Under the pieces are notes generated by a model, which did no database searches, was not told the origin of the DNA, and worked only from the letters and a program-made list of their open reading frames with translations. Source: a virus. Taken from it: a stretch of 21,565 nt of DNA. Made by a program: the position numbers and the translations under genes. Position 1 is the first letter of the stretch. Every line of letters starts with the position of its first letter. Where the stretch lies: UHGV virus genome UHGV-0142951; one strand, 5' to 3'. Positions 18,527 through 20,807 of this stretch are shown here, piece after piece.

Positions 18527-19063
18527 TCAAACAACCCACCAGTTTGCCTGATTGGATACCAGCCTTGCAGTTTTTATGGAATTAATTATGCCATGCTCAA
18601 GAGCCTTGTTAGCATCCAAAATGGTCGAGTCTGCTATCAGGGATGCCCACCTAATATGGGTTCCGATGTCGATATTGAACGTCTCAACGAAGCGATCAAG
18701 ATCGTTATCGAGGCATTTCCCGTACTCTCTCAATCTGGCATGGTCGGCGGCTGGGGAGGCAAAGCACCATAATAGAGGATGTAACAGGAATCTTGATAAT
18801 GGGTTTGCGAAACGTTCTGAGCCAGCCAGGAAAACGATATTAGCTATGGATTCAACATTGCTTATGTTGTGAGTTCTAACGGTAACAGGGAGTGACTTAA
18901 GAAAGTTATACGCAGTAAAGCCAGCGGCAGTTTCCCCTCCCTGACTTGATATATGGATATTTAATTCAGTTGCGCCTTGAGATAATGCGGTGAGACAGTG
19001 GTTCTGAAGTTGCCCAACAGTGGCAGTGTTAACGGGGCATAAGAAATGAATTGTGTGCAGCAT
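18527..19063 (-). CDS. ClpP-fold (S14-like) serine peptidase, 178 aa, translationally coupled to the upstream Mnt-like gene
   Basis: ORF track 18527..19063. Hand alignment to recalled E. coli ClpP: ISSQGGETAAG vs INSPGGVITAG; Ser72 (VESIA) aligns with the ClpP catalytic Ser (GQAASMG); RFANPLSRFLLHP vs RFCLPNSRVMIHQP places His95 at the catalytic His; C-terminal ALEHGIINSI vs AVEYGLVDSI with Asp145/Asp150 nearby. Start ATG overlaps the upstream stop by 1 nt (TAATG). AAGGA RBS lies inside the upstream gene. Confidence 0.65.
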   Translation of the reverse strand: MLHTIHFLCPVNTATVGQLQNHCLTALSQGATELNIHISSQGGETAAGFTAYNFLKSLPVTVRTHNISNVESIANIVFLAGSERFANPLSRFLLHPLLWCFASPAADHARLREYGKCLDNDLDRFVETFNIDIGTHIRWASLIADSTILDANKALEHGIINSIKTARLVSNQANWWVV

Positions 19064-19314
19064 TATTTTTCATCCTTAGCATACATGGTCTTTAGCGTCT
19101 CAACATCGTGTTCAAGATCTATCAATCGTGATGCTATAGTTGCAAGGTCTAGTGCTTGAATGTGTTTATTTTTTTCTGTCCACGCTTCAAGTGCCGCGAC
19201 CATCTCAGCATTTAATGAACGAGAATTAGCCTCAGCCAGTTCAATAAGACGTTCCTTTATCTCTACAGGAAGCCTCAGATTCACTTGAGGGTTTTTGTAC
19301 TTACGATCAGACAT
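19063..19314 (-). CDS. mnt: Mnt-like ribbon-helix-helix repressor, 83 aa
   Basis: Track ORF 19063..19320 begins at a GTG; preferred ATG 19312-19314 with AGGA 7 nt upstream. NPQVNLRLPVEIKERLIELAEANSRSLNAEMV resembles recalled P22 Mnt (DPHFNFRMPMEVREKLKFRAEANGRSMNSELL). C-terminal helix ...VETLKTMYAKDEK. Confidence 0.7.
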   Translation of the reverse strand: MSDRKYKNPQVNLRLPVEIKERLIELAEANSRSLNAEMVAALEAWTEKNKHIQALDLATIASRLIDLEHDVETLKTMYAKDEK

Positions 19315-19331
19315 CGGCACATCCTGAATAA

Positions 19332-19571
19332 TTATTTACCATACATGGTCTTTAGCGTCTCAAGTAGCGCCTCTTTGAATTTATCAGCTTCTTGGTTAGC
19401 GAATCCTTCAAGTGAGCGAGAGCCATCAAGATTATCAACATGTTTTTGAAGGATAAGCACGATCTCTGAGTTCATTGATCTGCCGTTTTTATCCGCTTCT
19501 TGCTGAATGCGTTTCTTTAAATAGTCTGGAATCCTAATCCCCAATGGACTGATATCTCTTGCACCTTTCAT
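19332..19571 (-). CDS. Second RHH repressor paralog, 79 aa (Arc-like N-terminus MKG..., Mnt-like C-terminal extension)
   Basis: Internal ATG (19569-19571) of track ORF 19332..19613 with GGAGGAGAA directly upstream. ISPLGIRIPDYLKKRIQQEADKNGRSMNSEIV is an RHH fold; C-terminus ...LLETLKTMYGK. Occupies the mnt position beside the divergent promoter region. Confidence 0.7.
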   Translation of the reverse strand: MKGARDISPLGIRIPDYLKKRIQQEADKNGRSMNSEIVLILQKHVDNLDGSRSLEGFANQEADKFKEALLETLKTMYGK

Positions 19572-19596
19572 TTCTCCTCCTGCACGCTGTGCATAG

Positions 19597-19666
19597 CTAC
19601 ACAGTGTAGGCAAAAAAATTTTGACTTTAAATAAACACGGTGTAGTATTTAGTTATCACGGTGTAG
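19597..19666. promoter_or_regulatory. Candidate operator cluster in the divergent mnt/arc control region
   Basis: Near-perfect palindrome CTACACAGTGTAG (19597-19609) plus two direct copies of CACGGTGTAG (19636-19645 and 19657-19666) spaced 21 bp apart. Four TGTAG/CTACA half-sites within about 70 bp between divergent RHH genes. Confidence 0.45.
19621..19648 (+). promoter_or_regulatory. Candidate Pant-like sigma70 promoter driving the arc-like and ant genes
   Basis: TTGACT (19621-19626), 16-nt spacer, TAGTAT (19643-19648). Overlapped by the CACGGTGTAG repeats. About 30 nt upstream of the arc-like RBS AAGGGGA. Confidence 0.4.
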
Positions 19667-19679
19667 CAAGCAAGGGGAA

Positions 19680-19820
19680 ATGAAAGTTAGAGACATCGCT
19701 CCATTAGGGATTCGTATCCCGCCAGAGATTAAAGAAAAATTGAAGGAAAAGGCTAAGGAGGAGGGCAGGTCTTTAAATTCAGAAATAGTGCAGCGTCTTA
19801 TTCGCAGCCTAAAAAGTTGA
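19680..19820 (+). CDS. arc: Arc-like ribbon-helix-helix repressor, 46 aa (below the ORF-track size cutoff)
   Basis: ATG 19680 with AAGGGGA upstream; stop TGA 19818-19820. My translation: MKVRDIAPLGIRIPPEIKEKLKEKAKEEGRSLNSEIVQRLIRSLKS, an RHH fold (beta strand then ..GRSLNSEI.. helix) as in recalled P22 Arc. Position immediately upstream of ant as in P22 immI. Confidence 0.7.
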   Translation: MKVRDIAPLGIRIPPEIKEKLKEKAKEEGRSLNSEIVQRLIRSLKS

Positions 19821-19884
19821 AGCCCCAACTGCGGGAACAGTCAGGGCTTCGGTATCGTAAAACCACGCATAGGAATTAACGACA
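19811..19884 (-). ncRNA. Candidate sar-like antisense RNA covering the ant ribosome-binding site
   Basis: Minus-strand promoter-like TTGATT (plus 19913-19918), 17 nt, TACACT (plus 19890-19895) inside the first ant codons. Minus-strand hairpin (7-bp stem 19819-19825 / 19844-19850 with inner 4-bp stem) followed by AAC then a U5 run (plus A-run 19811-19815). Predicted RNA of about 70 nt, complementary to the ant SD and start, analogous to P22 sar. Confidence 0.3.
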
Positions 19885-20807
19885 TGACGAGTGTAGCAAT
19901 TGCAGAACATACAATCAACGTTCCATTCCACGGAACAAATCTCTTTTTGGTCAGCATTAACAATGAACCTTACGTTCCTATGAAACCCGTTGTAGAAGGC
20001 ATGGGTATGGTTTGGGCTGCTCAATTTGTTAAATTAAAACAGAGATTTGTCAAAGGTATTTCGGAAATCGAAATACCTTCTGCTGGCGGTAAACAGTTAA
20101 TGATATGCCTTGCCTTTCGTAAGTTTGCGGCTTGGCTTTCAAGCATTCAGCCAAACAAAGTCCGCCCTGAAATCCGCGACAAGGTAATCCAGTATCAGGA
20201 AGAGTGTGACGATGTGCTCTACGAATACTGGACTAAAGGCCATGTAGTTAACCCGCGCAAAGCTAAAAAGGCATTGCCGGGGAAAATCACCACTGAACAG
20301 CAGGAAGCCATTAAACAACTCGTCATGAGTCGCGGTCAGTCTCTTCCAAAAGAAAAACAGGCTAAGGCGATGATCACCATGTGGTCGTCACTGAAATCCC
20401 ATTTTGGATGTTCGTACAAAGAGATCAGTGAGGAGCAGTTTACCGAAGCACTATCACTTGCAGCTCGAGTTCCACTTGAAGGTGAGTTCATTGGCAAACA
20501 AGAGAAGAAAGCAAACGAGCTTTCTGCAAAAGAAGCAAACAGCCTTGTATGGTTATGGGATTATGCCAACCGCTCACAGGCATTATTCCGCGAACTGTAT
20601 CCGGCGCTAAAACAAATTCAATCGAACTATTCCGGCAGATGTCATGACTGCGGTTATGAGTTCTCCCGTATTATCGATATGGCGAGAGATGTTTTAATCA
20701 ACCATACACGAGATGTTGATATTAATGAGCCAGACGGACCAACGAATCTTTCCGCATGGATGAGACTTAAGAATAAAGAATTACCTCCTTCAGTACATAA
20801 CTACTGA
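19884..20807 (+). CDS. ant: Antirepressor (P22 Ant-like)
   Basis: ORF track 19884..20807, 307 aa. AGGA 8 nt upstream; directly downstream of the arc-like gene and followed by a terminator, as in P22 immI. N-terminal region (VPFHGTNLFLVSINNEPYVPMKPVVEGMGMVWAAQ) is consistent with the P22 antirepressor N-terminal domain as recalled. Confidence 0.65.
   Translation: MTSVAIAEHTINVPFHGTNLFLVSINNEPYVPMKPVVEGMGMVWAAQFVKLKQRFVKGISEIEIPSAGGKQLMICLAFRKFAAWLSSIQPNKVRPEIRDKVIQYQEECDDVLYEYWTKGHVVNPRKAKKALPGKITTEQQEAIKQLVMSRGQSLPKEKQAKAMITMWSSLKSHFGCSYKEISEEQFTEALSLAARVPLEGEFIGKQEKKANELSAKEANSLVWLWDYANRSQALFRELYPALKQIQSNYSGRCHDCGYEFSRIIDMARDVLINHTRDVDINEPDGPTNLSAWMRLKNKELPPSVHNY

Follow-up and report, generated by a model that had tools for sequence, protein, structure and literature searches.

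The window analysed here, a stretch of 21,565 nucleotides from virus genome UHGV-0142951, is derived from a P22-like E. coli prophage and carries a complete P22-type immI module, arranged in the order mnt-like genes, control region, arc-like gene, sar antisense RNA and ant. mnt-like gene 1 (19332-19571, minus strand) encodes a 79-aa protein with a ribbon-helix-helix (RHH) domain and a Mnt-like C-terminal tail (Pfam Arc, E=5.6e-8), and it is probably co-transcribed with mnt-like gene 2 (19063-19314, minus strand), whose 83-aa product has the ribbon NPQVNLRLP and also matches Pfam Arc. The arc-like gene (19680-19820, plus strand) specifies a minimal RHH protein of 46 aa (Pfam Arc, E=5.2e-13) and diverges from mnt-like gene 1, leaving 108 bp between two reading frames that both belong to PF03869. 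Opposite the arc-ant junction lies the sar antisense RNA (19815-19882, minus strand), which matches Rfam RF00262 over its full length with 84.6 bits (gathering score 43, E=4.8e-18) and is accompanied by a terminator-like hairpin detected in the scan (19819-19850, minus strand). Its Psar-like promoter (19890-19918, minus strand; TTGATT-17-TACACT) lies within the opening codons of ant, is the positional homologue of the annotated P22 Psar, and has a predicted start that agrees with the 5′ end of the Rfam match. The antirepressor gene itself (ant, 19884-20807, plus strand) encodes 307 aa with both P22_AR_N (E=7e-40) and P22_AR_C (E=1.3e-27) Pfam domains, and its DNA is ~90-92% identical to annotated ant genes.

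A homologue of the gp16-like DNA transfer protein is encoded upstream of the module, and synteny with phage CUS-3 continues through to the tailspike, which itself lies past the end of the window. Such a position, with the gene 16 homologue on one side and the tailspike gene on the other within a P22-like late operon, is that of the "ant moron". This moron has been described in P22-like phages as highly variable, and only its P22 version has been studied (PMC2629481). Positions 19300-19900 are 99.7% identical to a prophage of E. coli MS 196-1, and identity to CUS-3 is ~90% over the locus. The control region is rare, being present in 19 of 5426 complete E. coli genomes.

Between the divergent RHH genes, a 70-bp stretch contains three related elements. 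O1 (19597-19609, centre 19603) has the sequence CTACACAGTGTAG and reads CTACAC-A-GTGTAG, an odd palindrome of 13 bp that is perfect in its 6+1+6 symmetry; a first-pass annotation of this DNA placed it correctly but called it near-perfect. O2 (19633-19645, centre 19639; AAACAC-G-GTGTAG) and O3 (19654-19666, centre 19660; TATCAC-G-GTGTAG) are half-symmetric 13-bp dyad sites, and they contain the 10-bp direct repeat that the annotation had also pointed out, CACGGTGTAG, which we find at 19636-19645 and 19657-19666, exactly 21 bp apart. All three are best read as 13-bp dyad sites of a single type, with the consensus yTACAC-n-GTGTAr. The annotation's description of a dense array of half-sites stands in every position given, and the counts go beyond randomised sequence: CACRGTGTAG occurs three times in the 21.5-kb window, each time in the 70-bp stretch, against 0.03 expected from shuffles, none of 100 of which reached three; and the four TGTAG/CTACA pentamers within 70 bp are the maximum for the window, a density of four being attained in 2 of 1000 first-order Markov randomisations. 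The centres of O1 and O2 are 36 bp apart and those of O2 and O3 21 bp, so the proposal that the sites occupy one face of the helix applies to O2 and O3 but fails for O1 and O2, which are separated by ~3.4 turns.

Two further elements deserve mention. Immediately left of O1 is a second small palindrome, TGCAC-GCT-GTGCA (19583-19595), and relatives have one more half-site resembling GTGTA/TGTAG, whose distance varies (GTGTAT in Tatumella, TGTAGCATTGCTACA in PhiR12_1); either may represent a fourth site of low strength or form a hairpin in the leader RNA. A candidate fourth site in the first ant codons, GTGTAG at 19891-19896, was rejected as a chance occurrence: it coincides with the -10 element of Psar (TACACT) and is not kept in other loci that encode the same repressors.

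The rightward promoter is clear. A Pant-like sigma-70 promoter (19621-19648, plus strand) consists of TTGACT (19621-19626), a 16-nt spacer and TAGTAT (19643-19648), with 9 of 12 consensus matches and a predicted start at ~19655; it is the sole promoter-class site in a scan of 18900-20000, and its hexamers are conserved in relatives. O2 lies over the spacer and -10 and O3 over the predicted start, as the first-pass annotation had it in noting that the repeats overlap this element. For the leftward direction, the standard scan of 18900-20000 returned no promoter above threshold. The best leftward candidate in a relaxed scan, below that threshold and with a weak consensus (8 of 12), is TTTAAA-17-TACACT (19603-19631, minus strand; -35 from 19631 to 19626, -10 from 19608 to 19603), with a predicted start at ~19596; weaker alternatives are present. 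It stands back-to-back with the rightward promoter, and its -10 falls inside O1. We favour this candidate because relatives retain AGTGTA even when their operators are of other types, and because the central A of O1, which would be T6 of that -10, is invariant while the centres of O2 and O3 vary. The weaker alternatives lie at the P22-homologous position, with starts expected at 19611-19617, and from them O1 would be found ~2-20 nt past the start (roughly +3 to +21). We thus infer the position of the leftward promoter from a weak-consensus candidate; since O1 would overlie either its -10 or the early transcribed region, occupancy of O1 should limit mnt transcription under either start. The annotation's view that the array controls two divergent promoters is supported as a prediction, with a clear promoter on the Pant-like side and this weak candidate on the Pmnt-like side. 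A conserved palindromic A/T tract, CAAAAAAATTTTG (19611-19623), lies between O1 and the -35 hexamer. It can be dismissed as a type-specific operator: its conservation in loci with three different ribbon/operator types makes it a scaffold or promoter element and not one that confers specificity.

The Arc and Mnt repressors of P22 are textbook models of DNA recognition by a β-sheet, and the small RHH proteins encoded here carry an N-terminal domain of the same family (Arc/Mnt, Pfam PF03869) with a G-R-S-x-N-S-E turn. Mnt-like 1, the product of mnt-like gene 1, aligns to the solved Mnt structure 1mnt over about residues 4-75 (E=4.6e-5), is 32.5% identical to P22 Mnt, and ends in a tail, ETLKTMY, that resembles DTLKDLY of Mnt; the Arc-like protein aligns to solved Arc and Mnt structures. 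The two proteins have nearly the same DNA-reading ribbon, RDISPLGIRIP in Mnt-like 1 and RDIAPLGIRIP in Arc-like. Across the N-terminal arm and ribbon, 12 of 14 residues and 33 of 42 nucleotides are identical; across the helices, which are Arc-class in one and Mnt-class in the other, the figures are 11 of 31 residues and 43 of 93 nucleotides. The ribbon codons differ synonymously, so identity has been held at the level of protein. An origin of Arc-like as a recent copy of Mnt-like 1 was rejected, as the two have only the arm and ribbon in common and the helices of Arc-like are Arc-class; compared with Mnt-like 1 (50%), the Arc-like proteins of Edno5 (65%) and ES2 (57%) are nearer relatives of Arc-like.

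Mnt contacts DNA through Arg2, His6, Asn8 and Arg10. In our alignments these positions are occupied by Arg, Pro, Gly and Arg, and Gln9, Asn11 and Arg13 of Arc correspond to Pro, Gly and Arg. The proline at the position of Mnt His6 resembles the substitution in a reportedly altered-specificity mutant of Mnt, His6 to Pro; a literature search for that mutant gave nothing usable. Pro and Gly can make few contacts to bases from DNA-facing positions, so the N-terminal arm or the shape of the DNA would have to supply part of the specificity. Arm and ribbon being common to Mnt-like 1 and Arc-like, both are predicted to bind all three sites, and one type of operator probably serves both. As an aside on nomenclature, many RefSeq phage records, and PHROGs 2685 and 795, name Mnt homologues "partition protein ATPase", apparently an annotation error that has spread.

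Comparison among relatives gives these predictions an evolutionary context. Scans with the Mnt-like protein recovered 4 genomic loci (2 of them useful), 80 viral loci and several annotated phages, from which we aligned 13 distinct control regions in which the Mnt-like and Arc-like proteins both have an xPxGxRxP ribbon. They represent five lineages: E. coli prophages (including phage PhiR12_1), locus L031, Tatumella terrea, Erwinia phage Midgardsormr38 and Edwardsiella phage Edno5. Most of the 13 are close E. coli relatives, and the effective number of independent lineages is therefore about five. In O1, TACACA-TGTA is invariant throughout and the central A never changes. In O2, the CAC..T.TA columns are invariant, the left outer triplet varies, and the central G is replaced by C in L031, Tatumella and Midgardsormr38. 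The sequence left of O1 and around the ribosome-binding sites varies. O1 and O2 are spaced by 36 bp in all five lineages, and O2 and O3 by 21 bp in E. coli, L031 and Tatumella and by 27 bp in Edno5; the control region of Midgardsormr38 has no clear counterpart of O3. Locus L019 (IMGVR_UViG_2675903606_000016) has Arg12 of Arc-like changed to His, an altered -35 (TTCGAC), an interrupted A-tract and a mutated O2 (GGTATAG), and appears to be a copy of this module in decay.

The repeats might be by-products, O2 and O3 of a neutral 21-bp duplication and O1 of nothing beyond a -10 element or mnt leader hairpin. O2 and O3, taken with their left flanks, do form a 21-bp tandem, a 19-nt direct repeat (19627-45 versus 19648-66) that is 79% identical, and the conservation of the O1 sequence AGTGTA in loci with other ribbons fits a -10 element. 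We nevertheless hold this explanation to be very unlikely. Loci whose ribbon matches are the only ones in which O1 has a left arm, CTACAC, that makes the dyad complete; in the phages of Tatumella, Erwinia and Edwardsiella the flanks have changed but the CAC-N-GTGTA cores have not; and the bases at the centres of O2 and O3 are G in some lineages and C in others, an exchange expected of a dyad site that preserves the dyad and not a direct repeat.

Loci that encode other ribbons are also informative. Among the loci compared, CACNGTGTA was found only where an RDIxPxG/S-R ribbon is encoded, and other-ribbon loci keep the backbone AGTGTA-n-CAAAAAAATTTTGAC but carry different motifs at the same places. 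Loci L004 and L008, with the ribbons SPTT[IV]RIP and SK[IT]L[IV]RMP, have TTTGATATCAAA motifs (the GATAT type) and a GTATTC..GAATAC palindrome, and CUS-3, with NPQVNLRLP and KVKTLRMP, has ATGCGTACC twice, 21 bp apart; the P22 and CUS-3 types each have control-region motifs of their own. In L009, which is Escherichia phage vB_EcoP-611R6, a Mnt ribbon related to that of the window (RDIAPYSVRMP) is combined with an Arc of the L008 type, and CAC-N-GTGATA and GATAT motifs overlap in its control region, so that this natural hybrid would help in deciding which motif belongs to which protein. Of the computational evidence for the predicted operator role of the repeats, this covariation of motif and ribbon, with the scaffold unchanged, is the strongest. 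Sister loci, built on one scaffold with different ribbon/operator pairs, also constitute a natural series for studying the RHH recognition code, in which the Pro-Gly-Arg ribbon type is now paired with a clear predicted operator, yTACAC-n-GTGTAr, for which we found no study in the literature searched.

It could still be argued that the Mnt-like protein is the only user of the sites, as of an Omnt set in P22, that Arc-like binds elsewhere or nowhere, and that the common ribbon is a functionless remnant of gene conversion. The 5′ ends of the two genes form an inverted repeat (19528-59 versus 19689-720, 78%; 19565-78 versus 19673-86, 93%), an arrangement compatible with segmental gene conversion. 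Yet the twin ribbon recurs in the E. coli, Tatumella, L031, Edno5 and Midgardsormr38 lineages, five diverged lineages in which it has been kept at the protein level; its differences are synonymous or conservative, the core-facing residues varying conservatively and the DNA-facing P, G and R being fixed; and the control region has no second motif type, unlike loci with two differing ribbons. We therefore judge exclusive use by the Mnt-like protein to be improbable, and prefer the reading in which both proteins use one set of sites.

The likeness to P22 immI is extensive, comprising gene order, divergent RHH genes, Ant domains, the sar RNA, and a strong rightward promoter with operators over its -10 and start. 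In the annotated P22-pbi record, Omnt lies on AGGTCCACGGTGGACCT at the Pant start, Oarc (ATGATAGAAGCACTCTACTAT) lies between the Pant -35 and -10, and Pmnt (TTGAGA-17-TATCAT) is on the opposite strand, overlapping Pant almost fully. That record bears out the remark in the first-pass annotation that a CACGGTG core resembles that of the P22 mnt operator: the core reads CCACGGTGG, and O2 and O3 share CACGGTG with it. In position O3 corresponds to Omnt, with a centre 12 nt after the -10 where that of Omnt is 15 nt after, and O2 has the position of the right part of Oarc. Identity of O2 and O3 with P22 Omnt was nonetheless ruled out, since they share the CACGGTG core only, are 13 and not 17 bp long, and have outer arms of TA/TA instead of GGTC/GACC; the proteins also speak against it, Mnt His6 and Asn8 being replaced by Pro and Gly, with Arg2 and Arg10 unchanged. 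P22 pairs a 17-bp Omnt and a 21-bp Oarc, which differ in specificity, with the ribbons H-N-R and Q-N-R, whereas three 13-bp sites of one type are accompanied here by twin P-G-R ribbons; separate Mnt and Arc operators of the P22 kind are absent, a single motif type occurring three times. O1 has no counterpart in P22, where only 28 bp lie between Oarc and the mnt start, and Pmnt, which overlaps Pant in P22, has its best candidate here back-to-back with the rightward promoter. Our search of the literature found no paper on immI operators other than those of P22. The locus is most likely a natural variant of the textbook P22 immI switch, known in kind but of a type not described in the literature searched.

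Other RHH systems offer partial parallels. In arrays of the CopG, MetJ and omega type, adjacent RHH dimers bind dyad or repeated elements of ~7-13 bp, and CopG recognises a 13-bp pseudosymmetric element; O1-O3 are likewise short dyad elements, whereas those proteins are plasmid copy-control or metabolic regulators without a divergent paralogue pair or an antirepressor target. Engineered Arc/Mnt hybrid repressors have reportedly been made by Knight and Sauer in 1989 and by Raumann et al. in 1995. These resemble the present pair in placing the same N-terminal reading segment on Mnt-class and Arc-class scaffolds; the difference is that the head found here is natural, has been kept in five lineages and comes with a matching set of operators. 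The locus thus presents a natural case in which to ask how repressors that share operators divide their roles.

Taken together, the repeats are most likely three binding sites, predicted from sequence comparison, for two related repressors that have the same DNA-reading tip and control the antirepressor gene. More specifically, we consider it probable that the 70-bp stretch is an immI-type operator/promoter region whose three operators of one type are read by both RHH repressors with Pro-Gly-Arg ribbons. The sequences themselves show the anatomy of the region, the identities of its genes, their conservation and the covariation of motif with ribbon; we infer the binding itself, the preferences of the proteins for particular sites and their oligomeric states. 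In the scheme we propose, Mnt-like 1, expressed leftward, and Arc-like, expressed rightward with ant, would both read O1, O2 and O3. Occupation of O2 and O3 would silence arc-ant. In a lysogen, Mnt-like 1, presumably a tetramer by virtue of its Mnt-like tail, would hold ant off, and O1 would provide autoregulation. After infection the rightward promoter would fire, and Arc-like would accumulate on the same sites, capping Ant synthesis and also shutting the leftward promoter, with sar RNA adding antisense control as a third layer. This logic follows that of P22 immI as summarised previously (PMC11016777). O1 is the best dyad of the three, and were Mnt-like 1 to bind it most tightly, the repressor would turn off its own transcription earlier than that of ant; the model accordingly calls for cooperative binding at O2 and O3. 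For maintenance, Mnt-like 1 would have to fill O2 and O3 at least as readily as O1, perhaps through tetramer cooperativity across the in-phase 21 bp. If the scheme is right, the sites would predict which prophages are cross-immune at the level of the antirepressor.

The right operator of phage lambda provides a working analogy. There, the three operators that separate the divergent PRM and PR serve both CI and Cro; here, two repressors expressed in opposite directions are predicted to read the same three sites, with one site on the maintenance promoter and two on the lytic-side promoter. The analogy has limits, in that the folds are unrelated, helix-turn-helix in the lambda proteins and RHH in those encoded here, and the present module controls an antirepressor and not the primary immunity switch. 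A more far-reaching version, which we regard as speculative and rather unlikely, is a lambda OR-like RHH switch in which nothing but oligomeric architecture and the geometry of the sites would distinguish paralogues that have one reading head. The Mnt-like tetramer would then bridge the half-symmetric, in-phase O2 and O3, silencing ant, while the 46-aa Arc-like protein, as a dimer, would prefer O1 as the perfect dyad and shut mnt first in the manner of Cro; the two proteins might also form mixed dimers.

The other RHH protein of the module, Mnt-like 2, appears to stand outside this scheme. An alternative in which O1-O3 are bound by a host factor or by Mnt-like 2 has in its favour that the latter is encoded in the same leftward string of genes. 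Its ribbon, NPQVNLRLP, is different, however, and where this ribbon type occurs elsewhere, in CUS-3 and in loci L073-L096, its usual partner is an adjoining pair of ATGCGTACC repeats 21 bp apart. Loci with the same array and no Mnt-like 2, such as PhiR12_1, are common, and we know of no host-factor consensus that matches O1-O3. Binding by either candidate strikes us as highly improbable, and we retain Mnt-like 1 and Arc-like as the predicted binders. In the window, ATGCGTACC has five one-mismatch matches where 3.7 are expected, which is not beyond chance, and there is thus no cognate repeat for Mnt-like 2; this absence and the differing ribbon led us to reject Mnt-like 2 as a binder of O1-O3.

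Heterotypic mnt genes stacked downstream of the cognate one are seen in several loci, with two mnt genes in the window, two in CUS-3 and three in L018 (of this, CUS-3 and P22 types), and no operator-like repeat that matches the additional repressors is present in the control region of the locus encoding them. Such genes might extend immI immunity to the antirepressor modules of other incoming phages, a role that they would also have under the lambda OR-like switch. A 28-nt direct repeat (19076-19103 versus 19336-19363, 96%) corresponds to the conserved 3′ ends of the mnt genes, encoding ETLKTMY, and homology with CUS-3 upstream of mnt-like gene 2 ends at TTACCA, at the beginning of the Mnt-like 1 tail; repeat and homology break have the look of a joint at which recombination inserted the second mnt gene. 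Here, as in PhiR12_1, a Clp-protease-like reading frame (18527-19063, minus strand; 178 aa, Pfam PF00574, E=2.2e-11, PHROG head maturation protease) directly adjoins the stop codon of the final mnt gene; the frame gave no match in PADLOC, and a lysogen would express it together with its maintenance repressor.

CUS-3 has been noted as apparently lacking arc (PMC2629481). In the CUS-3 sequence (our locus L001) we find an unannotated 46-aa Arc-like reading frame within "bsq2", at 2824-2963 on the plus strand and beginning MKVKTLRMPEKL. It is preceded by a TTGACT-17-TACTAT promoter that carries the ATGCGTACC pair, and the same gene occurs in L073-L096 as well.
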